The position numbers and the translations under genes are program-made. Below the pieces are notes generated by a model. It ran no database searches, was not told where the DNA came from, and worked only from the letters and a program-made list of their open reading frames with translations. DNA of 64,000 nt, from assembly GCA_016207165.1 (NCBI GenBank), contig JACQQD010000008.1, positions 96,001 to 160,000 of the forward strand. The letters run 5' to 3'. Each line of letters starts with the position of its first letter. Within the stretch, counting starts at the first letter, position 1. Positions 32,001 to 54,074 of the stretch are shown in pieces. The DNA comes from Candidatus Micrarchaeota archaeon (GTDB lineage Archaea; Micrarchaeota; Micrarchaeia; Norongarragalinales; Norongarragalinaceae).

Positions 32001-32213
32001 TATAGCAAGACCGGCAAATGAAACAAACCGCTTGGCGGTTTGTTGCATGCTGCAAGCCGTTATCGGCTTGCATCATTTCACGACGAATAGGCCGGTCTTG
32101 CTAGACAGCACAGCACAAATTGCTATGGCAATTTGTGTGGCCTTGCAAATCTTAGCGATTTGCAAGAAACCAAGACTATTGGCTTGGGAAACTTTCTTGG
32201 TTTGCTGTATTGA
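32001..32213. repeat. structured repeat copy A (inverted hairpin doublet plus two 57-nt double-hairpin inserts)
   Basis: 13-bp stem 32003-32015/32091-32103; second stem closing at 32195-32208; four internal hairpins; homologous to 42339-42435 and 54022-54074. Confidence 0.9.
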
Positions 32214-32267
32214 TGCCATCGATGTCATTTCGCGTCAAGTTCTGATGTTTTCTTCGATTTATTCGTT

Positions 32268-33521
32268 TCACACGGTGACGGTTTTTCCTTCGGTTGGAGC
32301 CGATGCGTCGAAGCCTTCGGCTTTGAGGTCCGCGACGAGGGCTTTGGCGGCGGATTCGTCGCCGTGCACGCAGAAGACGTGTTTGGGGTTGACGGCTTTC
32401 GCGTAGGCCACCAGCTCGGGGCCGGAGGCGTGCGCCGAGAACTCGAATTGGCTTACCGGGAGGTTGACTTTGTCGGAGTAGCCGTTGAACCGCACTTTTT
32501 GGCCGTTTAGAAGCGCGTAGCCGTTGGATCCAGGGGCTTGGTAGCCGGTTAACAAAACGACGCCGTTTTGGCGGTGGTTCAGAGCCTTCAAATAGGATAA
32601 TGCGGGTCCGCCGTCAAGCATTCCGGCGGTGGCGATGATGACTCCGGGTTTTTTGACGGCGGCTTGGCGTTGCGTGTGGGATTCCATGAAGCGCGTGCGT
32701 TTTACGGCGTCGCGCAAGAGGTTTGGGTTCTTGATGTAGGAGGGAAAATCCAGCATGATGTCGGTCACGGTTTTGGCCATGCCGTCCAAGTAGAAATCGG
32801 CTTGAACGCCTCTAGCTTGTAAAATGCAGAGGATTTCCTGCGCTCGGCCGATGGCGAAAGCGGGAACCAAGACGGTTTGGTTGTGGTCGACGGCGTCTTG
32901 GACTTGGTCGCAGAAGCGTTTTTCGAGTTCGTTTCGGTCGGGGTGGTCGGCTCCGCCGTACGTGCTTTCCGTGACCAGCACGTCGACGTCGCTTTTGGGT
33001 GGCTTGGCGCCGGCGTGAAGCCGCGTGGGTTCGGGTTTGAAGTCGCCGGTGTACAAGAGCGTTTTCTTGTTTTGGATGAGGACTTGCGCGGCGCCCAGGA
33101 TGTGGCCGGCGTCGAAGAACTCGAAGCGGGTGTCTTCGTAGAACGCGTATTGGGCGTTGTAGGGAAGCGGAATGGCGTGTTTGAGCAGGGTCTTGACGTC
33201 TTTGCGGTTGTAGGGTAGCGCTTTCTTGTTTAAAATCGCGATTTTTTCGGAGTCTTCCCACAACAAGTTCACCAAGGGCAATGTGGGAAAGGTGGCGAAG
33301 GCGGGGATGGGGTGGTGTTTGTAGAGGGAGGGCGCGGCGCCGGAGTGGTCCAAGTGGGCGTGGGAGAGAATGAATGCGTCGGCTCTGATTTTCGAGAAAT
33401 CCGGCATGCTGTCTTCTTCCCGGATTTTCATGCCCGCGTCCAAGACGATTTTGACGTCGGATTCGACGAGAAACGCGCTTTTGCCGACTTCTTGGCAGGC
33501 GCCGATGAAGGTGAGCTTCAT
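32268..33521 (-). CDS. MBL-fold beta-CASP ribonuclease (aCPSF2-like)
   Basis: GACQEVGKS, SHAHLDHSG, AGHILG, YTGD, ESTYG, FSAH, VHGD. Confidence 0.92.
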   Translation of the reverse strand: MKLTFIGACQEVGKSAFLVESDVKIVLDAGMKIREEDSMPDFSKIRADAFILSHAHLDHSGAAPSLYKHHPIPAFATFPTLPLVNLLWEDSEKIAILNKKALPYNRKDVKTLLKHAIPLPYNAQYAFYEDTRFEFFDAGHILGAAQVLIQNKKTLLYTGDFKPEPTRLHAGAKPPKSDVDVLVTESTYGGADHPDRNELEKRFCDQVQDAVDHNQTVLVPAFAIGRAQEILCILQARGVQADFYLDGMAKTVTDIMLDFPSYIKNPNLLRDAVKRTRFMESHTQRQAAVKKPGVIIATAGMLDGGPALSYLKALNHRQNGVVLLTGYQAPGSNGYALLNGQKVRFNGYSDKVNLPVSQFEFSAHASGPELVAYAKAVNPKHVFCVHGDESAAKALVADLKAEGFDASAPTEGKTVTV

Positions 33522-33576
33522 TCGATTTCCAGAACGGCGGGACTGTATTTAATGCATTGCACGGTTCGTGCCCTTG

Positions 33577-33876
33577 TCAGAGGGGTGTGGCGTGTTGGAG
33601 GACGTCCTTGATGATGACTGAGGTTTTCGATACTTTTTGGAATTCGTCGGGGGTATAGCACAGCAAGTCCGCCACAATGGGCACATCGGTGTGGCGCCAA
33701 ATAAGGCCTCCCCGGTTCACGAATGGTGTTGCCTTGAATTTTTGGCTGATGATGATCAAGTCGTAGTCGGATTGGGCTTTGGCGGTGCCTTTGGCCCGGC
33801 TTCCGAACAAGTAGATTTTGGCGTCGGAAAAAAGGAGGCGTATGTCCTTCAGTAAGGCGCTTAGTTTTTCATCCAT
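33577..33876 (-). CDS. minimal nucleotidyltransferase (MNT, HEPN-MNT antitoxin type)
   Basis: YLFGSRAKG...SDYDLII...DLLCYTPDEF. Confidence 0.88.
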   Translation of the reverse strand: MDEKLSALLKDIRLLFSDAKIYLFGSRAKGTAKAQSDYDLIIISQKFKATPFVNRGGLIWRHTDVPIVADLLCYTPDEFQKVSKTSVIIKDVLQHATPL

Positions 33877-33930
33877 GTCTCAATCAGTTCCAGGCCTTCT
33901 TGTGCGTCGGCCTTTTTTTAGTAGGTTGTT
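33861..33930 (-). pseudogene. probable HEPN toxin 3' remnant
   Basis: Reads TTY*KKADAQEGLELIETWMKN*, like HEPN C-terminal helices, and overlaps the MNT start. Confidence 0.4.
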
Positions 33931-34114
33931 GCCGGATGGCTTTTGTTTTTTCCGGTGCGCGCCTTCCAACCGTCTCTTCGTCGTTTGTCGAATTGGGTTG
34001 GCGTTTAAAGGAGGTGTCCGCGTTGTTTTCTTAAAGAGCCTTAGGCGTTTCCATGCCCGTCTTGCGGGGTTCATGGAAGGCGGTTTGGGTTTTTTTTGAA
34101 GAGGTGTTAAGGAA

Positions 34115-34483
34115 ATGGCTGGAAAAAGCATGTGGCCGATGTTGGGCGCGTACGCGTTCATCGTGGGCGTAGTGTTGGCAATCGTGTTGGGTGTATTGAT
34201 TCCGCCGAACGCGTGGTTGTTGGCGGGCTTGTCCATCTTGGGGTTGCTCGTGGCGCTTTTGAACGTCACGGAAAAGGAAGTCCACGACTACTTGTTGGCC
34301 AACGTTACGGTGATCATTGGCGCGAACGCGTTTAACGTCATGGTCACGTCTTTGGCGTCGCCGTTGGGCTTGGGTGCCATGGCGACGACGCTGCAGACGA
34401 TTACGTCGAACCTGGTGTTCTTCGTGGCTCCAGGCGCCGTTTTGGTGGCCCTCAAGGAAATCTATCAGTTGGCCCGCAACTAA
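34115..34483 (+). CDS. small 4-TM membrane protein
   Basis: Hydrophobic throughout; GAGGTG SD-like motif upstream. Confidence 0.85.
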   Translation: MAGKSMWPMLGAYAFIVGVVLAIVLGVLIPPNAWLLAGLSILGLLVALLNVTEKEVHDYLLANVTVIIGANAFNVMVTSLASPLGLGAMATTLQTITSNLVFFVAPGAVLVALKEIYQLARN

Positions 34484-34536
34484 GAAAACCGTTTGGGGGG
34501 CGTTTTGCCCCCGATTCTCTTTTTTCCGTTCTTTTT

Positions 34537-35529
34537 CTATTTCAATAGTTCGGCTTTCTTCAAGGCGTTGAGGTCTTTGGATCGCGTCAGAAACATTGTG
34601 GTTTTCAGTTCGTGCTTGTATTTCTGGATGGCTTGCCGCACGCCCGAAACGCCGGCGTGTTGTTGGGCTTTGATGAAGGGGGACGCGGCGCCAGCCAGGG
34701 TGGCGCCCAATCGGATGGCTTTGGCGGCTTCCAACCCGGAGCGAATGCCGCCGGAGGCAATTAATGGGACTTTGACGGCTTTGGCGCATTGGGCTAGGGC
34801 TGAAGCGGTGGGGATGCCAAAGTCCCAGAACACGTCTCCGCTTAATCCGTGGCGGTGGTGTTCCACGGCGGACCAGGACGTACCGCCGGTGCCGGACACG
34901 TCGATGGCTTTCACGCCGGCTTTTTGGAGTTCCTTGGCGATGGTGACGTTGATGCCGGCTCCGACTTCTTTGGCGATGACTGGCACCCGGAGGGCGTCAC
35001 AGGTGTCCGCGATTTTTGCGAGGATTCCGTTCCAGTTCTTGTCGCCTTCGGGTTGCACGGCTTCCTGCAAGGGATTCAGGTGGATGCAGAGCGCGTCGGC
35101 ATTAATGGCGTCCACGAGCCACTGGATTTGCTTGAGGGAGTATTGCTTGAGTTGGTAGGCTCCGATGTTGCCGCATAGGAAGAGGCCTTTCTGTTTGACG
35201 GCGTAGGTTTTGGAAAGCGTGGGGTCCTCCAGCATGGCGCGTTGGCTGCCGACGGCGAAAACGATGCCTTCTTGGGCGCAGGCTTGCGCGATTTCGGAAT
35301 TGATTTTTTGGGCGTCGGTATATCCTCCAGTCATGCCGGTGACCATGAATGGCGCTTTGAGGGCGTGGCCTAAAAACGTGGTTTCCAAGTTGACGGCGTG
35401 GAAGTCTTGTTCCGGCAAGGCATAGTAATTGAATCGGATGGCGTCAAAGCCGTTGCTTTGGTGGCCTTGGACGTCTTGGTTCAAGACGATGTCGACGTGT
35501 TCGCCTTTGCGTTTCTGGGTTTGCTTCAT
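34537..35529 (-). CDS. fni: type 2 isopentenyl-diphosphate isomerase
   Basis: RKGEHV, GMTGG, GSQRA, HLNPLQE, KEVGAG, GGTSW. Start reassigned to ATG 35529. Confidence 0.95.
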   Translation of the reverse strand: MKQTQKRKGEHVDIVLNQDVQGHQSNGFDAIRFNYYALPEQDFHAVNLETTFLGHALKAPFMVTGMTGGYTDAQKINSEIAQACAQEGIVFAVGSQRAMLEDPTLSKTYAVKQKGLFLCGNIGAYQLKQYSLKQIQWLVDAINADALCIHLNPLQEAVQPEGDKNWNGILAKIADTCDALRVPVIAKEVGAGINVTIAKELQKAGVKAIDVSGTGGTSWSAVEHHRHGLSGDVFWDFGIPTASALAQCAKAVKVPLIASGGIRSGLEAAKAIRLGATLAGAASPFIKAQQHAGVSGVRQAIQKYKHELKTTMFLTRSKDLNALKKAELLK

Positions 35530-35545
35530 ATGACGGTTTACTCCT

Positions 35546-36634
35546 TCAGGCTTTTTCAAGGCGTAGGCCGGCGTTGTCGATGGCCAAGTCAAATACGGCG
35601 AGGCCTTGTTCAAGTAAGTGGCTTTTGAGGTTCTCGGCTTTTTCGGTGGATAGGCACAAGGCGGCGATGGAGTCCAGGCCCCCGGCTCCGGGGCCTTTGG
35701 CGACGAAGGCGCCGTGTTTTGGGGCGCCTGAAAGGATTTTTTCAAGTGGCGGGGGTTGGATGGGGGCCCCGCTTTCTTCTCCGAGTTTTGTGGTGAGGCT
35801 CCATCCTTCGTTGAACCACTTCTTGAATTCGTTGAGGTTTTCCGGCGAGAAATCGGTTTGCAGTTCGTCGAGGTACCCCATGGCGTTGACGTTGGCTTCG
35901 TTTAAGCGTTTGACGAGGTCGTGGTATTGTTCGGCGTGCATTTTTTTCCAGGCGTTCACGGTTTTGACCATGGACGTCGTGGACGCGCTGTCTTTGGGGA
36001 AGGTGGCAAAAACGAGTTGGAACAGATCGGGTGTAGCCAACGGCCTAACCAGGTAGTCCCAGGTTTCATCCGCGTTTTTTGGGAAGGATTCCAGGGTTTC
36101 GGGGGTGAAGCGCTGGTATTCGCAGGAGCCGAAACACGCCGCCGCCACGTCGTAGCCTGACCCGATTTTGCCTTGGGCCTGCGCGTGCGCGGCTTGCGCC
36201 ACGTGGTGCGTGGTTTTGAGGTCGGAAATGTCGTGGAACGCCAGCAGCCCGTGGGTCATGGCGGCGGTGGCGGCGGCGGAAGAACCCAACCCGCTTTTTC
36301 CGGCGGTGACGTTGAAGGCCGCATCCGTTCGGGTGTTGAGGTGGAATGGTTTTGGCGTGATGCCTCTGCGTTCCAGGTATTGGAATGTTTTTTCGATGGC
36401 GGATTGAGCGAACTTGGTTTCCGGCGCGCCGCGTTCCAGTTCCAGTCGCCCGTTTTTCCACTGGGCGTGCGTGTCGACGTGGAATTGGGGGATTTGGATG
36501 CGGATGGTTTCCGCGGAACTGACTTCCGCGTGCACGCGGGCGGAAACGGTGGACAAGTAACTGGTGTTGCCTTTTTCCAGGACGCTGTAGCCGCCAAGCC
36601 AACCGATTTTTCCGGGGGCGGAAGCTGAAATCAT
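35546..36634 (-). CDS. phosphomevalonate kinase, ERG8-like GHMP kinase
   Basis: SAPGK..LGGY.VL, KSGLGSSAA, AHAQAQGKIGSGYDVAAA, PGAGG.D. Confidence 0.88.
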   Translation of the reverse strand: MISASAPGKIGWLGGYSVLEKGNTSYLSTVSARVHAEVSSAETIRIQIPQFHVDTHAQWKNGRLELERGAPETKFAQSAIEKTFQYLERRGITPKPFHLNTRTDAAFNVTAGKSGLGSSAAATAAMTHGLLAFHDISDLKTTHHVAQAAHAQAQGKIGSGYDVAAACFGSCEYQRFTPETLESFPKNADETWDYLVRPLATPDLFQLVFATFPKDSASTTSMVKTVNAWKKMHAEQYHDLVKRLNEANVNAMGYLDELQTDFSPENLNEFKKWFNEGWSLTTKLGEESGAPIQPPPLEKILSGAPKHGAFVAKGPGAGGLDSIAALCLSTEKAENLKSHLLEQGLAVFDLAIDNAGLRLEKA

Positions 36635-36651
36635 GTGGTTGGAACCTTGGT

Positions 36652-37716
36652 TCACGTAAAGACGATTCCTTTTGATTGGTTGAAGGCGTGGGGGATGACG
36701 TTTCCGGATTCATCGAGCAGGTGGCCGGTTTCAAGGCGTTTGGGGCCGTTTCCAACGCCGCAGACCAGCGTCTCGGTGACCCCTGGAATTTCTTCCAGCA
36801 TTTTTTGGACGGCTCCGGCTTGGTTTTTCGTGGTGTAGACGTGGGCGTTGGGTCCGGCGTCAAAGGTGTACGCCGCCTGGATGCCGTTGGCGTTAAACTC
36901 GTTCACGGCGTGCATGACGTCTTTGGAGTGGTCGTTGAGGTACAAAATCGGGGGCCACGTGTCAAGCATCACGGCGTGCATGTTGCTGGACTCGCGCATG
37001 GTTAATTCGCCGAAGGTTTCAAAGTCTTTGGCTAGAACGGCTTTTTTCATGTCGTGGATGAGTCCGGGCAAGTACGCCAGGCGGGCTTTGTAGAGCTGGC
37101 TTGTGGCCACAGTCTGTTTCATGCCGGCTCGTGACGAGACTTTCTTTTTGGTGGCGTCAACGACGGCAATGACGTTGCGGATTTCCGGCCAATGCGTTGC
37201 CGGAGCGACTTGTTCGGCAAACGAGTCCGAGCCGTCGGCTTTGACGCCTTTCTTCCATTCCACGAATCCTCCCAGAACGGAGCGGCAGGCGGATCCGGAG
37301 CCCAGGCGCGCGAGCATGGAGGTTTCCCGGGGATTTAGTTTTAGTCCGGCGGCCATGGACGCGGCGCAGGAAAGCGCGGCAAGTCCTGCGGCGCTGGAGG
37401 CAAAGCCGGCGGCGGTGGGGAAACAGTTCAACGACGCGATGTGGGCTTTGTCTTGGATTCCGGCTTTTCGGCGGATGACGTCTAAAAGCTGTAGGCGTTC
37501 CGCGGTTTCCTTGTCTGAAAGATCGATTTTTTGGCCGTTGAGCCAGAACGAGTCGGCCTTGAATTTTTTCGAGTAGACGACCGTGGTGCGGGTCTTGAGG
37601 GTCTCGTCCATGGTAAAGGAAAGCGATCCTTCGGTGGGCAGGATGAGTTTCTCGTCGCGTTTGCCCCAGTACTTGACCACGGCAATGTTGGGCGTGGCTT
37701 CAAAAGTGGCTCTCAT
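36652..37716 (-). CDS. mvaD: diphosphomevalonate decarboxylase
   Basis: NIAVVKYWGKRD, FPTAAGFASSAAG, GSGSACRS, YTFDAGPN. Start ATG 37716. Confidence 0.92.
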   Translation of the reverse strand: MRATFEATPNIAVVKYWGKRDEKLILPTEGSLSFTMDETLKTRTTVVYSKKFKADSFWLNGQKIDLSDKETAERLQLLDVIRRKAGIQDKAHIASLNCFPTAAGFASSAAGLAALSCAASMAAGLKLNPRETSMLARLGSGSACRSVLGGFVEWKKGVKADGSDSFAEQVAPATHWPEIRNVIAVVDATKKKVSSRAGMKQTVATSQLYKARLAYLPGLIHDMKKAVLAKDFETFGELTMRESSNMHAVMLDTWPPILYLNDHSKDVMHAVNEFNANGIQAAYTFDAGPNAHVYTTKNQAGAVQKMLEEIPGVTETLVCGVGNGPKRLETGHLLDESGNVIPHAFNQSKGIVFT

Positions 37717-38399
37717 GGCGTCTTCACGTAGGATAGGATGTCTTGCGGCTTTTTTAAGGTCGTCACGTCTTCGTCGGGAGTCGGCGGCAATCCGTAGCCC
37801 CACTCCGCAAAAAACAATCGGGCGCGGCCTTGCAGGCTTTTCAGGACGCGGGGCATGTCGTCGACGAACCACACGGTTTCTTCCTTGAGGCTTTCCACTT
37901 GCCGTTTTTTGAGTTCGTCGCTGGAGGCCGAGAAGCGGCTGGAGCCTACCACGCGGTCAAAGTAAGGGAACAATTGCTTGGCGGCGAGGTATTTTTTTAG
38001 GCTGGAGTCGTCGCGCGCCGAGACCACGGCCATGCGTGGGCCTTGGTTTTTGAGTTGTTTCAGGGTATCGATGATGCCGGGATAAACGGGGTTGTGGGGG
38101 AACTGTTTTTCCAGAAGCAAGTCGCGGTGCTTGTGGTAGAGTTCGCGAAGCTCCAGAACGCCGTTTTTTCGCTCCAGGCCGACGCGGTGGAGGTTTTCGC
38201 GGGTGTACGGAACGTGTTGTTGCCGGGCGAAGTACTGGATGAAGAAGTCGGTGGCTTGCACCGCGGTTTTTCGTTCGACTCGGAATTGTTTCAGGCTCAA
38301 GGGTTCAAGGCCGAATTCTTCCAGCGCCGCGTTGTAGCTGGCAAAGCATTCGTGGACGGTGTCCACCAAGACGCCGTCAAAATCCCAGGCTAAAAGCAT
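37713..38399 (-). CDS. HAD-superfamily hydrolase
   Basis: WDFDGVLVD, VVSAR, FVDD, WGYG. 4-bp overlap with mvaD. Confidence 0.85.
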   Translation of the reverse strand: MLLAWDFDGVLVDTVHECFASYNAALEEFGLEPLSLKQFRVERKTAVQATDFFIQYFARQQHVPYTRENLHRVGLERKNGVLELRELYHKHRDLLLEKQFPHNPVYPGIIDTLKQLKNQGPRMAVVSARDDSSLKKYLAAKQLFPYFDRVVGSSRFSASSDELKKRQVESLKEETVWFVDDMPRVLKSLQGRARLFFAEWGYGLPPTPDEDVTTLKKPQDILSYVKTP

Positions 38400-38466
38400 T
38401 TGCAAAAACCCTTAAACCTTTGCGTACAGTTTTCCGTAATTGGTTTGTGGGGGTTGGATTGTTTTT

Positions 38467-39486: not shown

Positions 39487-39502
39487 CTTTTTTTGGGTTG
39501 GC

Positions 39503-39901
39503 TTAGTGAACGCGTTGAATGCGTTCGACGTGGTCAAAGTCCGAGTCAAACGAGAGGATTTCTCGGAGGCCTCGTTTGTTGGTGGCATGGACGCTGAGGG
39601 CGTCGGAGAGGCTGAATCGGCCGTATTTCTTCATCAGTTTGCCGGCGGCTTCCAGGTCTTGGACGCTTACAGATTCAATGGCGATGTTTTTCGCGTTCAG
39701 AAATGCCTGCAGTCCTTCGTGGGCGGCTTGCGGCCCGTCCCGGCTGAAAAGATACGTTACGGCTTCTTCGATGACGTGCGTGGTGACGACGAGGCGTTCA
39801 TTGTCTTTGACGATGTCCTCGATGAGTTCTTTTGCTCGGTCATGATGGGCGTCGCTTTTCCGGAACAATGCGATGAAAAGCGATGCATCGGCGGTCTTCA
39901 T
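39503..39901 (-). CDS. vapC: VapC PIN-domain toxin
   Basis: DASLFIA...DAHH...VIEEA...SLSDA...SFDSDFD. Confidence 0.9.
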   Translation of the reverse strand: MKTADASLFIALFRKSDAHHDRAKELIEDIVKDNERLVVTTHVIEEAVTYLFSRDGPQAAHEGLQAFLNAKNIAIESVSVQDLEAAGKLMKKYGRFSLSDALSVHATNKRGLREILSFDSDFDHVERIQRVH

Positions 39902-40180: not shown

Positions 40181-40196
40181 ATATTTTTTATACTTT

Positions 40197-40964: not shown

Positions 40965-42230
40965 TTAACCGTCCAAGAGTTCTTTGGCGCGCTTTACGTT
41001 GACGTTTTTCTCTTTGGCCATGATGGCGGCGATGCGGTCAATGTCGTCGCCGGTTGCCCCGGCTTGCACGGCAATGTTGGCGGCGTGCAACTTCATGTGA
41101 CCTTGCTGGATACCTGTCGTCGCCAAAGCGCGCATGGCCGCAAAGTTCTGCGCCAATCCAACGGATGCCAGGATTTCGCCGAGTTCTTTTGCGCTTGAAA
41201 CCCCCAGAATCTTGAGGTTGGTTTTGGCCATGGGGTGGGTGCGCGTCGCGCCGCCGACGACTCCAACGGCCATGGGCAACTCGATTTCTCCGGTCAAGTC
41301 GCCGTCCTTGGTTTTCCAGTATCGCGTGAGGGTAGTGTATTGGCCGGTTTTCATGGCGTACACGTGTCCGCCGGCTTCCATGGCGCGCCAGTCGTTGCCT
41401 GTCGCCAAAACGACGGCGTCCATGCCGTTGAAGATGCCTTTGTTGGCGGTGCAGGCGCGGTACGCGTCGTTGGCGGCGAAGGCGTAGGCGTCAAGCATCG
41501 CTTCCACGATGGCTTCTCCGTTGAAAGCGCCTTTGGTGCTTTCCGCAAGGGCTTCTTTCGTCCAAGTGGCATGCGCTTTGGCGGTGCGGTGCACGGCCAA
41601 ATTCGAGAGGATGCGGAGGCGGGCTTTGGCGCCGGTGATTTGCTCGATTTTGGGGCTGATGGCTTCGCACATGGTGTTCACGGCGTTGGCGCCCATGGCG
41701 TCCTGGACGTTGACCAGCAAATGCAAGATGAGCATGTCGCCGCGGCTGGTTTTAATCACCCGGCTTTCCAGGTCCACGGCTCCACCGCCGCGGGAGACCA
41801 TGACGGGGTCTTTTTCGTTGGCGGTTTCAAGCAATTCGCCCTTGTGTTTTTTGACGGCGGCTTGGGCTTTACGGAAATCCGGGACGTGCACCAACTGGAT
41901 TTGGCCGATCATGATGGGTTGCGTGGTGGATGCCGTGAATCCTTTTGGGAGGCACAATTTGGCGGCGTGGCTGGCGGCCGCCACTACCGAGGGCTCTTCG
42001 ACGACCATGGGGACGAGGCGTTCTTTGCCGTTGACTTTGAAGTGGTCGGCGATTCCCAACGGCAAAGGGTAGGCGCCCACCACGTTTTCGATCATGCGGT
42101 TGGCCGTGGATTCGTCCAATCCCCCAAACGTCTTGAGGCGCGCGAGGTCCTCGGCGTCCAATTTCGCCAGTGTGGCGACTTCCTCGGCGCGTTCTTGGGG
42201 TGACTTGTTCCTAAACTCTTTGGAGAGCAT
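40965..42230 (-). CDS. mvaA: HMG-CoA reductase, class II
   Basis: MIENVVG, EEPSVVAA, DAMGAN, RILSN, NKGIFNG, GIQQGHMKLH. Confidence 0.95.
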   Translation of the reverse strand: MLSKEFRNKSPQERAEEVATLAKLDAEDLARLKTFGGLDESTANRMIENVVGAYPLPLGIADHFKVNGKERLVPMVVEEPSVVAAASHAAKLCLPKGFTASTTQPIMIGQIQLVHVPDFRKAQAAVKKHKGELLETANEKDPVMVSRGGGAVDLESRVIKTSRGDMLILHLLVNVQDAMGANAVNTMCEAISPKIEQITGAKARLRILSNLAVHRTAKAHATWTKEALAESTKGAFNGEAIVEAMLDAYAFAANDAYRACTANKGIFNGMDAVVLATGNDWRAMEAGGHVYAMKTGQYTTLTRYWKTKDGDLTGEIELPMAVGVVGGATRTHPMAKTNLKILGVSSAKELGEILASVGLAQNFAAMRALATTGIQQGHMKLHAANIAVQAGATGDDIDRIAAIMAKEKNVNVKRAKELLDG

Positions 42231-42338
42231 GAAACCGTATTGGAGTCCTGGGGTTTCAAAAGGCTGCCGGGTGTTGGGCGATTGACGAAGGGTCTACGGG
42301 TTTTTATACGCGGATTGTCCAGAAAACGCTTGAACTGA

Positions 42339-42435
42339 ATTACAGTAAACCACGAATGTTTCCCGACAAAATAGTCGTGGTTTACTGTCTAGCAAACTCC
42401 GCCTATTCGTCGTGAAATTTGCGGGGTTTGCTATA
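42339..42435. repeat. structured repeat copy B (intact inverted hairpin doublet)
   Basis: Perfect 14-bp stem 42342-42355/42375-42388, then 13-bp stem 42390-42402/42421-42433 (one T-G pair). Ends ~20 nt before the HMG-CoA synthase ATG. Confidence 0.9.
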
Positions 42436-42454: not shown

Positions 42455-43492
42455 ATGGCAGGCATCATCGGCTACGGCGTCTCCATTCCGCGCTTCCGCA
42501 TCAAGACCGAGGAAATCGCGCGGGTGTGGGGCAAAAACGGGGCGCACATCACCTCGGGTTTGGGCGTCAAAGAGAAAGCCGTAGCCAGCATCGACGAGGA
42601 CTCCGCTACTCTGGCGGTGGAGGCCTCCCGGCGGGCCGTCCTTATGGCGGGCATTGACCCGCAGAAAATTGGCGCGGTGTACGTGGGCTCGGAATCCAAG
42701 CCGTATGCCGTCAAGCCCACGGCGTCCATTGTCGCGGATGCGTTGATGGCTGGACCGGACCTCATGGCCGCCGACTATGAATTTGCGTGCAAGGCGGGAA
42801 CGGCTGGAATGCAGAACTGCCTGGGTTTGGTGTTAAGTGGAATGGTGGACGTGGGACTGGCGGTAGGCGCCGACACCGCTCAGGGAAGGCCGGGGGATGC
42901 ATTGGAGTTTTCGGCGGCCTCCGGCGGCGCCGCGTTTTTGGTGGGGTCCAAAAACGTGATCGCGGAAATCAATTGCACGTACTCGTTCACCACGGACACG
43001 CCGGACTTTTGGCGGCGCCAACACGCCGAGTTTCCGCAGCACGCCGGAAGGTTTACCGGCGAGCCCGCGTATTTTCGTCACGTGGTTTCCGGGGCCAAGG
43101 GCGTGATGAAAAAGGCGAAGACGAAACCCGAGGACTACCAGCATGCCGTGTTTCACCAGCCCAACGGGAAATTCCCTGAACGCGCGGGCCACATGCTGGG
43201 CTTTTCCAAGGAACAACTCCAAACCGGCTTGGTCACGCCGTCCATTGGCAACACGTATTCCGGCGCGTCCTTGATTGGCTTGGCGGCGGTGTTGGATGAA
43301 GCCAAACCCGGCGACCGCATCTTGTGCGTGTCGTATGGTTCGGGGGCGGGAAGCGACGGGTTTGACATCACGGTAACGCCGGAAATCAAGAACAAAAAGC
43401 CGGTGGTGTCCGTCAAGCAGTTGGTGGCGGATAAGCAGTACATCGATTACGGGCTGTACGTCAAGCACCGGAGAAAACTCAAGAGTTTGTGA
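42455..43492 (+). CDS. hmgB: HMG-CoA synthase, archaeal type
   Basis: [43 protein letters not shown]. Confidence 0.95.
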
Positions 43493-46780: not shown

Positions 46781-48257
46781 TGGATTTTACGCTAACACTT
46801 CGGAGTCGGCCTTCGCCTGGCAGCGACGACGCAGGTTCGGGTTCTTGAGGACCGGAAACCTGAACTTCCTTGGGCGTTTCGGTGGCCTCTTTGGGCGTTG
46901 TGGCCGGCGGCTCCGGCAAGTCCAGGTCCGCGGTTTGGCGGATGGTCAAGACCACGTATTGTTTGGGGATGCGTTCCAGCCATGGCGCGTCCAAGGGGTT
47001 GTCACCGTTTTTGACTTGGTCTTTGTAGGCGGCCGCAATTTGTTCACGGGTGGGCCGGCTGAACATGAATTGGAGGGCGATTTTTTCCTTGGCTTCTTTT
47101 TCGCCAAGCTTAGCGCCGGCGGCCAAGCGGTCGGCGCTGGGAAGCGTCGACGTTTTTCCGTTGGAAAGCGCGACTTGAGAGACGATGTCGTTGCCTTGGA
47201 ACGTGTTTTGCCCGCCGACGTTGAACGAATGGCCCCAAAAGTCCTTGAGCTTGAACCGGATGCCTCCGTCCTGCGAGGCGTCAATGATTTCAATGCGGTA
47301 ACCTTGGCCGAATGTCAACGTCACCGGCGCGTTGGCGATTTGGCTGACGTCCAGCAAGTATTGGGCGGTTTGTTGGGGTTTCACGTGGTGGGCGACGGCG
47401 GCCAGTTCCGGTGCGGCAAAGCGCTTGGGCGTTGGCTGGTAGCCCTTGGATTCGCCGCGGAAGACTTCCGGGTACGCGTCCATGAACACGGCGTAGTCGC
47501 CGTTGGGCGCGTATTGGAGTTGCGTTCGGCCACTCCACGAGAAAGCGGGCGACGTTCCCGTCGGTCTTCGGAGTCGTCCGGGGTTGACGCTGCGCCGGAT
47601 TTCCAGCGAGTCGAAACGCGGAGCGGATCCGGCTATGGACTGGAAAGCGGCTTCGTCGAAAATCACGGGTTTGGCCATGGCCACGATTTTGGCGTTGTCG
47701 GCTTGGGCGTCAAGCCACCCGCCGCGGACCACGTCCGTGCTGTCGTAGCGGAGCGCAACCGAAGGGATGTGAAACAAAGGGTAGAACTGGCCATACGCCT
47801 TGGTGACTTCCTGTTTCAGTTGGGCGTCCGTTTTCGCGTTTAGTTCTTTGTCGATTCGCTCGGATTTGACGAAGTCGCTTGGGAAAGAGAGGGCGGTTTT
47901 CGGGGTCTTGGATTGCCAGACGCTGGCGTCGTTGCCGGCGGCACGGATTTCAATGACTACGACGAATTCACTGCTTTTCGGGGACGCCAAAGGGGTGGCC
48001 TTGATCAGTTCGTCTTTGGATGCGTAGTTTTCCAAGGACAAGTCGGCTTGGATGTTCACGAAGTTTCTTTGTTCCGCCGACGTTTTTTCAACCAAAACGA
48101 ATGCGCCATCGGTTTTTTCGACGGCGTCCACCGAATCCAGGGTGTAGGTTCCCCCGTCTGAAAGCGGGTGGAACGAGATGCTGACCGGCGCCGCGGATGC
48201 GGCGGACGCAAAAAGAATGAGGACGGCCAGGATGTGCCAAGCGGACCGATCGTGCAT
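46665..48257 (-). CDS. secreted hypothetical protein
   Basis: Signal peptide ending ASAASA. The last ~37 aa look out of frame. Confidence 0.75.
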   Translation of the reverse strand: MHDRSAWHILAVLILFASAASAAPVSISFHPLSDGGTYTLDSVDAVEKTDGAFVLVEKTSAEQRNFVNIQADLSLENYASKDELIKATPLASPKSSEFVVVIEIRAAGNDASVWQSKTPKTALSFPSDFVKSERIDKELNAKTDAQLKQEVTKAYGQFYPLFHIPSVALRYDSTDVVRGGWLDAQADNAKIVAMAKPVIFDEAAFQSIAGSAPRFDSLEIRRSVNPGRLRRPTGTSPAFSWSGRTQLQYAPNGDYAVFMDAYPEVFRGESKGYQPTPKRFAAPELAAVAHHVKPQQTAQYLLDVSQIANAPVTLTFGQGYRIEIIDASQDGGIRFKLKDFWGHSFNVGGQNTFQGNDIVSQVALSNGKTSTLPSADRLAAGAKLGEKEAKEKIALQFMFSRPTREQIAAAYKDQVKNGDNPLDAPWLERIPKQYVVLTIRQTADLDLPEPPATTPKEATETPKEVQVSGPQEPEPASSLPGEGRLRSVSVKSSGDYSCSHHTHRLHRPGCPNHRHRRPAIQRPPNRGQQV

Positions 48258-48381
48258 GGTGTGTTATACGCGTTGAAAGCGCTTAAAAGGGTTTTGGGGT
48301 TTCCAGGTTCCGGCTTCGGAATCTTTTTAACCGCCCGAAGCCTGCTTGTTGTTCGGAAGGCCTTTTTCGGGCGGTTTTTTC

Positions 48382-49215
48382 ATGATCGGCATTTACTCGA
48401 ATTTTGAAGAGTTTTCGAAAGTCGCCGAACAAATGGGCGTCAAGGACGACTTGCGGGCGTTGTTGACGCTGAACCTCATCTTTTTCGAGCGGTACGAGGA
48501 TTACTCGATTGTCAGCGTGAGGGATTACTCGGATTCGCCCAACAACATTCTGGTTTTGTCCAAGGACAAGACGGTTTTGTATTCGGAGAAGCAGATCACG
48601 CAACGCGATTTCCGGTTGTTCAAGTACACGGTGCAGAAGACGTACGGCGAGTCCACGGCCTTGACGCTTCTGGTTTTAAAGGAAGTGTTGCGGTCGTACA
48701 CGAAGCATTTCGACAAGATCAATGCCGAGATCGACACGTATTCCGGGGTCAAGGACCTCGACAAAATCGAGTTGACCACCGTCAACTTGCGTAAACTCAC
48801 GGTGGACGTGGAGGACTTCCAGAACTTGTTGTATACGTTGGAGGACCGAAAAGTCCGGGAATTCCGCACCGAGTACTTGGAGTACGACTACGACTTGGTG
48901 TTGGCGCGCACCCAGCACTTGTTGGACCGGTGCCGGAACCACTTGCAGGAACTGCGCGACTTGCGGTCGGAAGTCGAGGTGCGGGCCACCGCCGACTTGA
49001 ACCGGAGCATCAAGAGCTTGACGGTGGTCATGATGTTTTTGACCATCATCACCGTGGTGTTGTCGGTTCCCAACACCGTGGCCACCGTGTTCGGCGTGCC
49101 TCCGATTGCCGCGTTGTACGACCCCCAGACGATTTTGGCCATCGTGGTTTTGTCCATGGTTGTGGCGGCGGCTTGGGGCGTGCATTACTGGACGAAAAAA
49201 AAGCTGGAGTTGTAG
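48382..49215 (+). CDS. CorA-like divalent cation transporter
   Basis: Helical soluble domain, LNRSIKSLTVV, two C-terminal TMs. GMN is replaced by GVP. Confidence 0.75.
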   Translation: MIGIYSNFEEFSKVAEQMGVKDDLRALLTLNLIFFERYEDYSIVSVRDYSDSPNNILVLSKDKTVLYSEKQITQRDFRLFKYTVQKTYGESTALTLLVLKEVLRSYTKHFDKINAEIDTYSGVKDLDKIELTTVNLRKLTVDVEDFQNLLYTLEDRKVREFRTEYLEYDYDLVLARTQHLLDRCRNHLQELRDLRSEVEVRATADLNRSIKSLTVVMMFLTIITVVLSVPNTVATVFGVPPIAALYDPQTILAIVVLSMVVAAAWGVHYWTKKKLEL

Positions 49216-49219
49216 CCGA

Positions 49220-49645
49220 ATGGAATCCTGGATTGTTTACGCGTTGGTCGCCGTCTTGTTGTTGGGCGTGTCGAACTTCTTGTTTAAAACAGTGGTCAAC
49301 GCCGTTGAATCCGAGGACTTGAAGTTGGAGGCCGCGTGGCCGGTTTTGGCCGTTTTTTTTGGGGCGGCATTGCTGGTGGCGTTGGCTTACGTCTACTTCG
49401 TCATCCAGCCGCCCGCGACGCTGCTTTTGTCCGTGGCGGCGTTGGCGGTTCTGTCCATGGTCGCGGTGGGCTTCATCTTTTTGTCGCTCAAGACGGGCAA
49501 GGTGGCGGTGGTCACCGCTTTGCTTGGTTTGAGCGCCGTGGTCGTCGGCGTTTTGTCTTATGCCTTCTTGGGCGACCGGTTTTCGGCCAAGGAATTGGTG
49601 GGAATGGGTTTGGCGTTGGCGGCCGTGTGGGCGCTTGCCGCGTAA
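49220..49645 (+). CDS. EamA/DMT single-domain transporter
   Basis: Five TMs; SLKTGKVAVVTAL...FLGDRFS..ELVG. Confidence 0.8.
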   Translation: MESWIVYALVAVLLLGVSNFLFKTVVNAVESEDLKLEAAWPVLAVFFGAALLVALAYVYFVIQPPATLLLSVAALAVLSMVAVGFIFLSLKTGKVAVVTALLGLSAVVVGVLSYAFLGDRFSAKELVGMGLALAAVWALAA

Positions 49646-49652
49646 GGGGCGT

Positions 49653-50774
49653 TCAGTCTTTTTGGAGTTTGAGGACGTCGACTTTCCTGCCGTTCTCGAA
49701 TTGGCGGAGTTTTCGGCGCGTGTGTCCGGGGTTGGGGTATCTTTTTTCGAGTTGTTTTCGCCGTTCCTGGAGTTGTCGGACGCGGTCGTCGCCTAAGGCG
49801 TTGGCCCCAATTTCAAGGGCGTTGTGGATTTGCTCCAATTCGTCCAAGTCGAGGTGGACTTCCATGTATTTTTCGTATTCGCGGCGGTCGTTGGCCAACC
49901 GGTTTTGCAGTTCCAGCCACTCGTCTTCTTTCCCTGGTTCCGGGGGCTCGTCGGCCAGCCGCGCCGTGCTTTGTTTGAAATAGGAGAACAGCCGTTCATG
50001 GCGTTCTTCGGGAGTTGCGGGAGCCTTTTGAGTTCGGGATGTCGCGGGAAGCGTTTTTTCAAGGACGTGCCAGACGCGTCCGCCGGTGGCCCTGGAAAGC
50101 ATGCGATCGCCCCACAAGCGCAGGGCGTCTTGTTCGGTGCGGGGTCGCTTGGGCTGGGAAACCAATTCGCGCAAGGCGTCCAGCATCCGCAGCGTGATGG
50201 CCAGTCCCTGGAAGTTCTTCTCGATTTTCTGGCTTTCCTTGTGCAGGTGCTCCATGTTTTCTCGAATCTGTTCTTGGGTCAGCAAGCCGTCGTCGGGGCG
50301 CGGGTGCCGGACTAAATTCTTGGCTTTATAGAACAAGGGGTAGCGTTGCCTGCCGAGTTTTTCGTGCCACCTTCGCCGTACCAGCGTGCGGGCGGGTAAA
50401 AACAGGCCGCTGGCCGCGGAGTAGAAGAACATGTGTTCGGGGTCTCCCACGGCGTGCGAGAAGGCCGCTCCCAAAGCCGAGGCGTGAAGCACGTCGCTGA
50501 GTTTTACGGATTCGGCTTTTCCGGTGTCCGTGGGGATGGGCAGCGGGTTTTCGCCGCGGACGATGGACAGCCGCGTTTCCGGGTTCGCGACGATGGCTTT
50601 CAGCGCCAGGTGGACGTAGTATTCTTGTTCGACGTCGCGGATGCGGCTTTCCACGATTTTTCGGGCCCGATTCGCATCCCAGTCTTTCAGGCGCAACGCG
50701 TATTCCTTGAGCATCTGGTTGGAAATGGTCCGGAAGCGGGAGGGCAAAGGCGAGCGGAAGGGTTTTTCACGCAT
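49653..50774 (-). CDS. hypothetical Arg/Glu-rich helical protein
   Basis: 373-aa ORF filling the gap between convergent and divergent neighbours. Confidence 0.7.
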   Translation of the reverse strand: MREKPFRSPLPSRFRTISNQMLKEYALRLKDWDANRARKIVESRIRDVEQEYYVHLALKAIVANPETRLSIVRGENPLPIPTDTGKAESVKLSDVLHASALGAAFSHAVGDPEHMFFYSAASGLFLPARTLVRRRWHEKLGRQRYPLFYKAKNLVRHPRPDDGLLTQEQIRENMEHLHKESQKIEKNFQGLAITLRMLDALRELVSQPKRPRTEQDALRLWGDRMLSRATGGRVWHVLEKTLPATSRTQKAPATPEERHERLFSYFKQSTARLADEPPEPGKEDEWLELQNRLANDRREYEKYMEVHLDLDELEQIHNALEIGANALGDDRVRQLQERRKQLEKRYPNPGHTRRKLRQFENGRKVDVLKLQKD

Positions 50775-50927
50775 ATGGCTTTCCTGGTGTTCCCTCCAAT
50801 ATTAGGCTTTTTTCTGGGGTCAAACCCAAGAAATAAAAGCCACCGCGGCAAAAATTTTTTCACGTTTCTTGGGCGGTGAAGCCGTTTATTGGTACGCGGC
50901 CCAATTGGTTTTCGAGGGATTTACTTT

Positions 50928-51878
50928 ATGGACTTTGATTTTGACGTGTTGATTGTCGGCGCGGGCGCCGCGGGCTTGACGGCGGCTTTGTACACGTGCC
51001 GGAAAAACCTCAAGACGGCCATCGTCTCCATTGACGTGGGGGGGCAGACGAATTTGACGTCCAACATCGAGAACTATCCTGGGGTTGAACCCATGCATGG
51101 CGCGGTTTTGATGCAGAAGTTCCTCAAGCAAGCGCAGGGCGTGGGCGCCCAACTGATTTCCGGCAAAGTCGGCAGGATTGAAAAAATCGAGAACGGTTTT
51201 CGCGTCAACCTCAAGGACGGCCAAGCGTTTACGTCCAAATGCGTGCTGTTGGCTTTTGGCAAAGTCCCGCGCACCCTGGGCATTCCTGGGGAGGACCACT
51301 TTTTTGGGAAAGGCGTGTCGACTTGCGTCACGTGCGACGGGCCCCTGTTTCGGGGTAAGGACGTCGTGGTGGTGGGCGGCGGCAATTCCGCCATTGAAGG
51401 CGCTTTGGAACTGGCGGAAATCGCGAACAAGGTTTATTTGGTGCACCGCCGGGACGCGTTTAGGGCGGACGAAATCACGGTGCAGAAGCTGAAGTCCCAC
51501 AAGAACATGGAGTTGGTCTTGAATTCGGCGGCGGTGGAAGTCAGAGGCCAAAAATTCATTGACACGGTGGTCGTTCAAGACGTCAACACCAAGGCCACGC
51601 GCGACTTGGCCGTCAAAGGCATGTTTTTGGAGATTGGCTTCATCATGGACATTTCCATGCTGGAGGGGTTGAACGTGAACGTCAACGCCAAGAAGGAGAT
51701 CTTATCGGATTCCGTGACGTGCCACACCAACGTTCCTGGATTGTTTGCCGCCGGGGACTGCACGGCGATTCCTTTCAAGCAGACCGTCATTTCGGCGGGC
51801 GAGGGCGCCAAGGCGGCGTTGGAAATCCATCGTCACATGACTGGAGCGAAAGGCATTGCCCTGGATTGGGACCATTAA
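50928..51878 (+). CDS. trxB: thioredoxin reductase
   Basis: GAGAAG, IENYPG, GVSTCVTCDG, GGGNSA, VHRRD, FAAGD. Confidence 0.93.
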   Translation: MDFDFDVLIVGAGAAGLTAALYTCRKNLKTAIVSIDVGGQTNLTSNIENYPGVEPMHGAVLMQKFLKQAQGVGAQLISGKVGRIEKIENGFRVNLKDGQAFTSKCVLLAFGKVPRTLGIPGEDHFFGKGVSTCVTCDGPLFRGKDVVVVGGGNSAIEGALELAEIANKVYLVHRRDAFRADEITVQKLKSHKNMELVLNSAAVEVRGQKFIDTVVVQDVNTKATRDLAVKGMFLEIGFIMDISMLEGLNVNVNAKKEILSDSVTCHTNVPGLFAAGDCTAIPFKQTVISAGEGAKAALEIHRHMTGAKGIALDWDH

Positions 51879-53695
51879 GCGGCTTCGTGGTGCAGGGCTT
51901 TTGGCAGTAAAAGCGTCAGGGCGGCGTCTTTTCCGTGATCCAGTTCCCGTGCCATGTGTTCCAACACCGTTCGCGGGTCGTCCTTATCGGTACGGAGGTT
52001 TCGCCAGTGCCGGCGCCAGCCTTTACCCAGTTTGAGTTGGACGGCGTTTTCCTGCAGTTCTTGCGCGGTCAGGTTGACGCCGGAACGCCTTGTCAATTCT
52101 GTTGCCAGAAATTCGTAGGCCTGTTCCCTGCTTTGGGGGAGCTTGGGCACCGGTAAACTTGCCGCTTTAGCTCCGGCGAGGTCCTTGTACTGGCTTTGCA
52201 GGCGCTCCCGTTCGCTCTGACCGGAAATGCCGAGGCTGTACAGCAGCTTGTTGAGGTTGTGCCATGTATCGGCTTTTGCGCCGGGACCCTTGGGCGGTTT
52301 TCTCACCCGGTTTCCAAGAGAGTCAATCCACCAGTCTTTGTCTTCGAGGATCAGGTTGCCGGTGTTGTTGACCACGGCTTTGGCGACGTGTTGCGCAAAG
52401 CCGTCCAGTCTGTCTTGGGTGAAGTGGGGGTCCACCTGGGCTTTGCGGCGAAGCAATAGTTCGGTGACTTTGATGAAGTCGTAGCCGGCGTTGGGGTGGT
52501 GTTCATGGACTTGGGCAAGCGGGACGCCCAATTCGGCGGCCACGGCTTTTTGGGCGGCGGCTTGGAACGCGTTGGTGGGCGGCGCTGGCGTTTTTGCGGG
52601 GGCCGGGCCGGGCGTCAACGTGATTTGAGGCGGCTTGCCGCCGGTGGTGTGCGTGAACAGTGGCGTCGGGGCTTCAGCCCCGGTCGCGACTGCGGCTGGC
52701 GTGGGCTTGGCAAAAGATTGTTCGATTTGGTCCGCGATGAAGCCAGGGGTTTTCAGCGCACCCAGCATGATGACGGCGCCGATGGCGGCGGCTTTGGCTC
52801 GTTCTTTCCAGAGAAACGGCGCCGGTTTTTCCGCGAAGCGTCGCATGGCTGTGTGTTTGTCTTTTCGGCGCAAAAGCTTGAGTTCCTCGATGCCGTGGAG
52901 CATCTGGCGCGGGGTGGCGGTGGCTTTGGAAAGGATGTCGTTCGTCATTTGGGCAGGAAAGTGCGAGAGCATGTATTCCCTCACCAAAAACTCGTTCACG
53001 TCGCCTTGGACGCGCCGCAGTTCTTGTTTGTACTCGTCCAAGGCGGCGCCTTTGACTTCAGGACTCCAGTTCGGCTCGGCGCGTATGGCGTGGCTCAGCT
53101 TGTTTTGTGCGGTGTCGCCTTGCTCGGCGGCTTTCAGGTGTCCTTGAGCGACGTGGAGTTGTTGTTCCAGGAGGCGTTTCATCTCGTCGGGATGAACGTC
53201 GCTGGGTAATCTCCATTCCCGGTTGCCTACGCGGATGAAGTTGCCTCCCAGAAGCACTAGCGGGTCTTTTCTTCCGCTGATTCTCCTCTGGCGCTCCATG
53301 AAGGCGCTGAGCCTTGCCAGAAATCCGCGGAACATGAAGTTCGGTCCCAAGTCTCGGAATTGGTGCTGCAAGCGATTTTCGATGTCGGCGTCAACTTTTT
53401 CTTGGAGCTCAGCTTCAAGCGCTCGCGTTTTTTCCTCGAATTCCAGGAGTTTCGGGTTGGTGCGCCGCAATGCGTTTTCATGTTCTCTTTCGACCGCCGG
53501 CGCGTACCCGTCGCCCAGCATGGTTTGAACCCGGGTTTGGATTTCTTCGTGAAGGGCGCGTTCTTCGTGGGCGCTCAGCCGTGTTTTGATGCCTAAGACG
53601 GCGGGAGTCCACGTCTGCTCTCCCGCCCATCGCATGAGTTTCCTAGCGTGGTTTCGGAATGCTTCCAGGAACGTCATTTTTTCTTCCTCGGCCAC
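51875..53695 (-). CDS. hypothetical single-pass membrane protein (606 aa)
   Basis: Helical N-terminus, central hydrophobic AAAIGAVIMLGAL, Pro/Thr linker. Confidence 0.75.
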   Translation of the reverse strand: MAEEEKMTFLEAFRNHARKLMRWAGEQTWTPAVLGIKTRLSAHEERALHEEIQTRVQTMLGDGYAPAVEREHENALRRTNPKLLEFEEKTRALEAELQEKVDADIENRLQHQFRDLGPNFMFRGFLARLSAFMERQRRISGRKDPLVLLGGNFIRVGNREWRLPSDVHPDEMKRLLEQQLHVAQGHLKAAEQGDTAQNKLSHAIRAEPNWSPEVKGAALDEYKQELRRVQGDVNEFLVREYMLSHFPAQMTNDILSKATATPRQMLHGIEELKLLRRKDKHTAMRRFAEKPAPFLWKERAKAAAIGAVIMLGALKTPGFIADQIEQSFAKPTPAAVATGAEAPTPLFTHTTGGKPPQITLTPGPAPAKTPAPPTNAFQAAAQKAVAAELGVPLAQVHEHHPNAGYDFIKVTELLLRRKAQVDPHFTQDRLDGFAQHVAKAVVNNTGNLILEDKDWWIDSLGNRVRKPPKGPGAKADTWHNLNKLLYSLGISGQSERERLQSQYKDLAGAKAASLPVPKLPQSREQAYEFLATELTRRSGVNLTAQELQENAVQLKLGKGWRRHWRNLRTDKDDPRTVLEHMARELDHGKDAALTLLLPKALHHEAA

Positions 53696-53991
53696 CGGCT
53701 AGCGATTTCATCGGATTGGGCAATCAATTGCCTGACTTCGTTTTGGAGTCTTATCACTTCCTTTTCTTGCTCTACTTGGGCCTGGACACTCGTTTTTGCC
53801 AACTCCATCATGCGGCGGATTTCAAGGCCTGTATGGTCGTTTCCCGCTTGTTTGCGGATGTCTTGGCACACGGCTTCTGCGATTTGTCGAGCCGTTTCAG
53901 GATGGATGTGGTGTCTTTCGGGCAATTTTTTCTCGAGGAATGCCTGCAGGCCCGTCAGGCTTGCTTCCAACCGTTGCCTCGTTGTTTCCAT
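53674..53991 (-). CDS. small helical hypothetical protein
   Basis: Overlaps the start of the 606-aa gene. TATAAAA ~30 nt upstream. Confidence 0.65.
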   Translation of the reverse strand: METTRQRLEASLTGLQAFLEKKLPERHHIHPETARQIAEAVCQDIRKQAGNDHTGLEIRRMMELAKTSVQAQVEQEKEVIRLQNEVRQLIAQSDEIASRWPRKKK

Positions 53992-54021
53992 GATAGCAGA
54001 TATTTAGGGAAACGACTTTTT

Positions 54022-54074
54022 TATAGCAATCCCCGACTATTTTGTCGGGTCACTTTCTTGGTTTGCTGTATTGA
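54022..54074. repeat. structured repeat copy C (internally deleted)
   Basis: Begins TATAGCAA; 16-bp exact match to copy B (54034-54049 vs reverse complement of 42362-42377); 23-bp exact match to copy A (54052-54074 vs 32191-32213). Confidence 0.85.

Follow-up and report, generated by a model that had tools for sequence, protein, structure and literature searches.

Paired-hairpin DNA repeats with covarying stems in a Micrarchaeota genome, and the case for their mobility

The repeat in the window and in the source genome

The stretch of DNA analyzed here (the window) comprises 64,000 nucleotides of a Candidatus Micrarchaeota archaeon (assembly GCA_016207165.1; the source genome, G000 in the following) and corresponds to positions 96001-160000 of its contig C8 (JACQQD010000008.1). 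It holds three copies, A, B and C, of a short structured repeat, all of them located between open reading frames (ORFs). An initial annotation had described them as a dispersed repeat with covarying stems that resembles the repetitive extragenic palindromes (REPs) of bacteria and their inverted hairpin doublets (REPINs). The sequences quoted there for the three copies were confirmed at their positions in the window, and a covariance model scan of the 64 kb detected no copy beyond these three. It is also confirmed that copies A-C belong to a real, genome-wide family of paired-hairpin DNA repeats.

Copy B (42341-42435) shows the basic arrangement. It reads TACAG...GCTATA and consists of two hairpins of 47-48 nt, placed tail to tail with one C between them. 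Unit 1 (42341..42388, plus strand; stem ACAGTAAACCACGA, loop ATGTTTCCCGACAAAATAG) scores 68.6 bits against the covariance model and the inverted unit 2 (42389..42435, minus strand; stem TAGCAAACCCCGC/GCGGAGTTTGCTA, loop AAATTTCACGACGAATAG) 61.9 bits. The predicted fold is that of two hairpins on either strand, with z-scores of -8.0 and -7.9; all z-scores given here were calculated for single-stranded DNA against 200 shuffles, of which only 0-1 fold as well as the respective copy. The copy lies in a spacer of 224 nt between two divergent genes, one encoding HMG-CoA reductase (40965..42230, minus) and the other an HMG-CoA synthase-like protein (42455..43492, plus).

Copy A (32001..32209), which is flanked by genes for a beta-CASP nuclease and a GT4 glycosyltransferase, is a composite doublet whose minus strand reads TACAG...GCTATA in the same order as copy B. 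Its CACGACG-loop-type unit (32001..32104, plus strand; stems TAGCAAGACCGGC / GCCGGTCTTGCTA) scores 35.1 bits over model positions 1-48, a match spanning an insert at about 32020-32075 that breaks the loop. In the CCCAAG-loop-type unit (32105..32209, minus strand; core match to the model at 32162-32209, 43.9 bits) an insert at 32110-32166 separates the 5' foot ACAGC (32105-32109, plus strand) from AAACCAAGA (32167-32175). Within both closing stems there is an additional block of about 56 nt that consists of two nested mini-hairpins, at 32022..32072 (32022-32044 and 32051-32072) in the first unit and at 32114..32166 (32114-32137 and 32142-32166) in the second, and the predicted fold of the whole copy is a pair of multibranched hairpins (z -12.9). 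Mini-hairpins nested within units are also found at C1:46980-47183 and C12:35215-35369 of G000; they have stems of 9-11 bp, which resemble the unit stems, and tetraloops, the loop of the unit being absent. Composites of this kind are multi-copy (C7:5929 and C7:33179 of G000) and have relatives in two further genomes, G001 and G002.

Copy C (54022..54070, minus strand; 59.7 bits), which the initial annotation had called deleted, is indeed a single chimeric unit, with a 5' arm (ACAGCAAACCAAGA) and a 3' arm (TCGGGGATTGCTAT) of two different stem types. It folds more weakly than copy B (z -4.1 and -3.6) and is a product of deletion or recombination. Its flanks are not conserved in the congeners. 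The genes on either side (53674-53991 and 54090-55850, both minus) gave no Pfam match and have no counterpart at the DNA level in either congener, and this part of the window is variable.

The source assembly (1.27 Mb in 12 contigs, 56% G+C, 90% complete) contains 44 non-overlapping units, identified by short-word BLAST and iterated nhmmer, at 29 loci, or at 32 loci once diverged and interrupted ones were added by eye. The anatomy of the unit was taken from an alignment of 34 full units of G000 (alignment A1). In detail, a unit is a hairpin of 46-48 nt that runs from a conserved 8-bp foot, TAYAGCAA, through seven variable bases, the loop and the complement of those seven bases to the closing foot TTGCTRT(A), the two feet pairing as TAYAGCAA with TTGCTRTA. 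The foot is the best-conserved part of the stem, and the inner stem of 6-7 bp is variable in sequence but complementary. The loop of about 19 nt is conserved as GAAAGTTTCCCGAC..AATAG, with the consensus AAAGTTTCCCGAC.AAATAG in A1 and a second form, AAATTTCACGACGAATAG, which is that of unit 2 of copy B. At least nine inner-stem types occur in G000, each with its complement, including ACCAAGA, ACCACGA, ACCCCGC, GACCGGC, TCCCCGA, TCCCGGA, GCCAAGA, ACCATGA and ACCGCGA. Most loci are inverted doublets, in which two units usually stand tail to tail, separated by a single base.

The elements are bounded by TA. In 23 of the 32 locus spans the dinucleotide stands at both ends, and at eight loci (C6_112, C7_6, C8_17, C8_76, C8_150, C9_27, C11_20 and C12_105) it lies in the flank, the span being offset by one base. 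It is found at one end only in C3_102 and C4_3, which are truncated elements, and at neither end in C8_67, where the feet are diverged; apart from these three loci, every element has TA at both ends. T is often enriched in the 5' flank and A in the 3' flank. Nine bases, ATGGTCCCG, follow GCTATA just 3' of the doublet both at C9:46891-46899 of G000 and in L148 (G002:C68), two non-orthologous sites; this may reflect a subfamily that extends past the TA end, or chance.

Ends of this kind could point to a miniature inverted-repeat transposable element (MITE) moved by double-strand cut and paste, in which the TAYAGCAA feet would be the terminal inverted repeats for a DDE transposase of the IS630/Tc1-mariner kind, the TA target would be duplicated and the hairpin would be a by-product. 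The TA at both ends, the terminal 8 bp as best-conserved part of the stem, the T-rich and A-rich flanks, the size and the intergenic location all fit this explanation. In addition, an automated census that covered 8,220 genomes of archaea describes, in the part available to us, some DPANN genomes as densely populated with MITEs (PMC11602168), which fits as well and which makes the statement of the initial annotation that no equivalent has been described in DPANN archaea too strong.

Selection on the pairing of the unit stems

For the analysis of covariation a 14-bp stem was specified by hand and the pairing observed was compared with that of 500 shuffles. In alignment A1, 93.3% of the cells pair, compared with 77.5% after shuffling; 7 of the 14 pairs show changes on both sides (69 cells), none of the 500 shuffles reaches the observed score, and slid registers pair at 26-43%. 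A second set was made up of 67 matches (54 of them distinct) from eight other genomes and from contigs of metagenome-assembled genomes (MAGs) that possibly overlap with these, none of which had been used in model building. Here, in an alignment that was fitted to the model, whose related copies are not independent and whose palindromic units may match on both strands, 92.7% of the cells pair, compared with 72.8% after shuffling, 12 of the 14 pairs show changes on both sides (138 cells) and again 0 of 500 shuffles reach the score. Clean double changes are also seen between closely related copies of three species (TCCCCGA/TCGGGGA, TCCCGGA/TCCGGGA and TCCACGA/TCGTGGA). These data show that selection acts on the pairing of the unit stems.

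The initial annotation had offered two folds for a doublet, two hairpins or one long rod. In 9 of 9 doublets there are 0-2 mismatches within each unit, whereas the arms of partner units differ at 4-6 of 14 positions. Since the doublets pair within their units and not between them, it is the two hairpins that are conserved, and the rod is disfavoured. The cells that depart from Watson-Crick pairing comprise six of the G:T/T:G and five of the C:A/A:C kind, without strand bias; as the former are not commoner than the latter, this is weak evidence that folding is required of the DNA and not of one RNA strand. Of the earlier proposal of a mobile element or a structured RNA under selection on its structure, the structural selection is upheld by the covariation, and the mismatch counts give no sign of a strand-specific selection on RNA; a structured RNA is nevertheless conceivable.

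Because the inner stems change only in pairs and the loop between them is conserved, we think it more likely that a folded strand is recognized than that the ends of a duplex are simply bound. This bears on the cut-and-paste MITE described above: at least nine complementary inner-stem types with a conserved loop are not required by a transposase that reads ends, and the halves of the doublets pair within themselves and not mutually, both of which argue against it.

Position, distribution and relatedness of the copies

According to our own crude scoring of ORFs (1,217 calls in G000), 30 of the 32 locus midpoints lie outside confident ORFs in a genome that is 83% coding (binomial P ~2e-21), and the two exceptions sit at the 5' ends of long ORF calls that are possibly over-extended. 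Long ORF calls run into several of the repeats, so that the gene starts beside them need checking. With respect to the type of spacer, 19 loci of G000 are tandem, 7 convergent and 4 divergent, the shares predicted from spacer lengths being 0.55, 0.23 and 0.22; as the counts follow spacer length, the loci are not tied to promoters. The common orientation relative to the next downstream gene, which had been pointed out for the three copies, is correct for A, B and C. It does not hold as a rule of the family. Among tandem loci with unlike ends, the TATAG end faces the downstream gene in 7 of 8 in G000 (p 0.07), a figure that becomes 7 of 9 (p 0.18) when genes are called more strictly; for other genomes it is 1 of 3. 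A reading of the TATA-like ends as promoter cassettes finds no support in these counts of spacer types and orientations.

The same counts are relevant to the possibility that the element serves its host, either as RNA (a stabiliser in untranslated regions, a processing site or a small RNA) or as a DNA site for a host protein, with mobility being secondary or past. Stems that covary would be expected of such an element, and copy B would separate the start of the HMG-CoA synthase-like gene from a promoter-like motif that is conserved. However, copies occur in all spacer types in proportion to length, including the seven convergent ones, their orientation to genes is not significant, the genes beside the units form no common class and the G:U-type mismatches lack a strand bias. 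Moreover, a scan of 31800-54300 against Rfam 15 gave no family match at the copies at E up to 1. The only match of the scan, to the c-di-GMP-I-GGC riboswitch at 43292-43414 (plus), inside the HMG-CoA synthase-like ORF, is probably due to chance, as it scores 27.7 bits with a gathering score of 59.

BLAST searches found the doublet in both congeners and, weakly, in one other genus. At the level of the family, 26 genomes were scanned with covariance model R1 at E up to 0.01, some matches being opposite-strand echoes. There were 67 matches in G000, 79 in G001, 30 in G002, 44 in G009, 3 in G022 and none in each of the other 21 genomes, so that units are present in 5 of 26. Within the order (E up to 1e-6) the distribution is patchy, with 1 to 56 copies in 11 of 68 genomes; seven of these 11 lie outside the window's genus, spread over four families. 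In the distant genomes foot and loop are kept, and the inner stems are new yet complementary. The dispersed structured repeat that had been annotated from three copies is thus well founded, with 44 units at about 32 loci of G000, matches in 11 of 68 genomes of the order, covariation that no shuffle reaches in either set, and no match to an Rfam family or to the ends of an insertion sequence (IS).

A motif scan of 185,579 species genomes matched 10 stretches, four of them in three Candidatus Micrarchaeota archaeon MAG records from groundwater; the remaining six were single matches in unrelated bacteria, about the number estimated for chance. Viral contigs gave no match to two motifs. Four groundwater DNA runs of one study contain the window, and no RNA run is listed as containing it. 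The four element-rich genomes are also the largest of the family, with 1.3-1.4 Mb compared with 0.7-1.1 Mb for the rest.

For the host-serving element this distribution cuts both ways. Conservation of foot and loop over four families of the order would speak for it, but a copy number that varies from 0 to dozens within one family, with 21 of 26 genomes lacking units, is incompatible with a core function.

Comparison of individual copies gives evidence on movement. Three near-twins of copy B are present in G000; they match it at 96-98% over 95-96 nt and lie on contigs C6 and C11 and at another place on C8. Three doublets of G000 match copies of G001 or G002 at 92-94% at places with different flanks, i.e. 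non-orthologous ones, while the coding DNA around copies is 65-77% identical between species and the spacers are unalignable. In the spacer between the reductase and synthase genes a motif outside the repeat (42280..42308; GATTGACGAAG-N9-GTTTTTATA) is shared by G000, G001 and G002 as well as by two metagenome contigs (L012 and L013), the rest of the spacer being unalignable; it likely serves the mevalonate genes as a common promoter or site for a regulator. Copy B lies to the right of this motif and a diverged doublet of G001 (L010:1883-1978) to its left, and no doublet was detected at E up to 1 in the corresponding spacers of G002, L012 and L013. From these positions, the doublets of G000 and G001 are read as separate insertions. 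In the spacer at C9:46796 of G000, the G000 and G001 doublets lie near the same gene end and belong to different unit types, and G002 has none.

That doublets stand in the same orthologous spacers of G000 and G001, and that doublets are more similar between species (92-94%) than coding DNA (65-77%), would also be expected of a host-serving element. On balance, in view of the spacer types, the neighbouring genes, the Rfam result and the distribution, we regard such a role as the principal explanation of the family as quite unlikely. The readings are not fully exclusive, as a mobile repeat can be co-opted.

Readings of the element and the search for its mover

In our opinion the family is probably a lineage-restricted, non-autonomous mobile DNA repeat that is read by its structure and served by a putative mover. 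Its anatomy is that of REPs and REPINs, and its boundaries are MITE-like on account of the TA and the conserved inverted feet. A putative trans-acting protein would recognize the foot and the loop in DNA that is folded as a single strand or extruded as a cruciform, and would copy or move the element into AT-rich (TA) sites. Only well-paired copies would propagate, by which the stems would be kept complementary. Such a mover may belong to a new or very divergent family; alternatively, its gene may fall within the 10% of the genome missing from the assembly, or the protein may come from outside the cell.

There are several points that weigh against mobility. G001, although it has only some 40 loci, is also occupied in both of the G000-occupied spacers that were compared at the sequence level, suggesting hot spots, or old persistent elements overwritten by conversion, rather than free transposition. 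The identity between species above that of coding DNA could also mean that every copy is functionally constrained. At base resolution no empty site was seen, the spacers of G001, G002, L012 and L013 being too diverged, and a duplication of the TA target, with TA present at both ends of nearly all copies, is a possibility. The Logan contigs of four runs break at the repeats, as these interrupt short-read assembly graphs; they contain no joint across an element or removing one and are uninformative on polymorphism and expression. Joints at 32109/32167 in these contigs are cross-matches from other copies. To these points the crudeness of the gene calls and the outcome of the searches for a mover have to be added.

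These searches were done with Pfam profiles in six frames, and control genomes were positive in every one of them. Y1 HUH transposases (PF01797) were absent from G000, G001, G002, G009 and G022. TnpB (PF07282) was absent from G000, G001 and G022; two copies were found in G002 and one in G009, at loci without units nearby (E up to 10, noise aside). The IS630 domain DDE_3 (PF13358) gave no match in 26 of 26 family genomes, and the IS4/5 DDE domain (PF01609) none in G000. IS110 (PF01548) is present only in G009 and rve (PF00665) only in G001 and G009, both being absent from G000, and reverse transcriptase (PF00078) is absent from five genomes including G000. In sum, seven transposase and reverse transcriptase families are missing from G000, none is common to all element-rich genomes, and no IS with the ends of the unit was found. 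The element-bearing genomes are 71-90% complete.

Further candidates were rejected. Only one of the six IS4/5-like genes of G009 has a doublet nearby (143 nt), and the copies share no DNA and no ends, which likewise counts against a mover of this kind. A serine recombinase (PF00239, Resolvase domain, 95.6 bits) at C1:163156-163587 (minus) of G000 is single and has no unit in its vicinity; the four other genomes searched for it, G001, G002, G009 and G064, which also bear the element, lack such a gene. Around the units of low-copy genomes (10 loci), only epimerases and DUF2204 nucleotidyltransferases were shared among the neighbouring genes, with no transposase, and the ORFs between closely spaced units (G000 C6, C12 and C9; G001/G009) were ordinary or doubtful.

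REPIN systems with their REP-associated tyrosine transposase (RAYT), a Y1 HUH enzyme, have been described for bacteria. The Micrarchaeota repeat shares with them short intergenic hairpins in tens of copies, common inverted doublets, compensatory changes in the stems, subfamilies within one genome and persistence in related lineages. It differs by its archaeal host, by the longer unit (46-48 nt) with a large conserved loop, by its TA bounds and by its feet. The foot of a REP hairpin carries a conserved GTAG or CGTC tetranucleotide, as stated in the part of the source available to us (PMC3733652), and the feet TAYAGCAA/TTGCTRTA have no such tag. Neither the mechanism of spread by RAYTs that the initial annotation named nor a flanking of Y1/RAYT, TnpB or IS110 genes, which it proposed as a check, finds support, all three being absent from G000 and the TnpB loci of relatives lacking units. 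A true REPIN/RAYT system, or one derived from IS200/IS605, would therefore require an overlooked Y1 transposase. The hairpin units, inverted doublets and covarying stems correspond to REP/REPIN anatomy and the genomes are incomplete, but the absence of PF01797 from five of five element-bearing genomes with positive controls, the TnpB loci of G002 and G009 without units and the untagged feet make this highly improbable. A survey of complete genomes points in the same direction: as far as the part available to us goes, the Y1 proteins that it saw in Archaea were all of the IS200 subclass (PMC6006769).

As to the cut-and-paste MITE, the lack of PF13358 in all 26 family genomes and of any empty site showing a TA duplication adds to the evidence from the stems, and we hold this explanation to be unlikely. 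Parallels are MITEs with TA target duplication, such as the Correia (NEMIS) elements of Neisseria or MITEs derived from IS630. Common to them and the present element are a length of about 50-210 bp, a non-coding and intergenic nature, conserved inverted termini (TATAG...) and TA at both ends; orphan status is a further parallel, as the Correia element is likewise not known to have a transposase. The Micrarchaeota element, however, is modular: either half forms a hairpin on its own, in which the inner stem covaries and the loop is conserved. A transposase of the IS630 type was not found in the 26 genomes, and the termini of the element are shared with no IS that we found.

Palindrome-associated transposable elements (PATEs) and other IS200-IS605 derivatives of haloarchaea are likewise archaeal, palindrome-associated and non-autonomous, but no link of the units described here to TnpB/TnpA genes was found, either in sequence or in position. 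The attC sites of integrons are folded imperfect palindromes between genes, too, with structure conserved above sequence. In contrast to these, the units are not gathered in a single array but scattered in both orientations among the housekeeping genes of all contigs, and the A1 units have no RYYYAAC/GTTRRRY core. Origin recognition boxes (ORB) and other origin sites, attC sites and CRISPR were judged unlikely from anatomy alone. In the part of the literature available to us on MITEs, insertion sequences and palindromes of Micrarchaeota and DPANN archaea the family is not described, although the supplementary lists of PMC11602168 may contain it, and a 2026 survey of archaeal IS elements mentions, in the part available to us, Micrarchaeota in counts only (PMC13343696).

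The mobile, structure-read repeat that we favour is therefore of a known, REP/MITE-like kind. What makes it moderately surprising is the host in which it occurs, the fact that it is an orphan and the degree to which it is conserved between species. DPANN genomes are small and reduced, and selfish repeats are not expected to thrive in them; here about 30 spacers of 1.27 Mb are occupied. If the repeat is mobile, it would represent an undescribed way of moving structured DNA in archaea, with loop and foot as a handle to fish for the enzyme; if it serves the host, Micrarchaeota would have in it a regulatory or architectural element that has escaped annotation. A more far-reaching suggestion, which we consider possible though doubtful, is that of an archaeal counterpart of the REPIN replicators that has long been kept in one order and is copied by a new kind of enzyme (not Y1 HUH, TnpB or a known DDE transposase), or one that the host, or a mobile partner of these episymbionts, provides in trans. 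The loop and foot would then be the recognition code and the free inner stem a subfamily tag.

The repeats at the contig ends of G000 were also considered as a hidden IS, and they turned out to be gene fragments or overlaps. Contig ends overlap by 141 nt at 100% identity between C1:1-141 and C3:111202-111342 and between C3:1-141 and C4:5156-5296, and these contigs can probably be joined.

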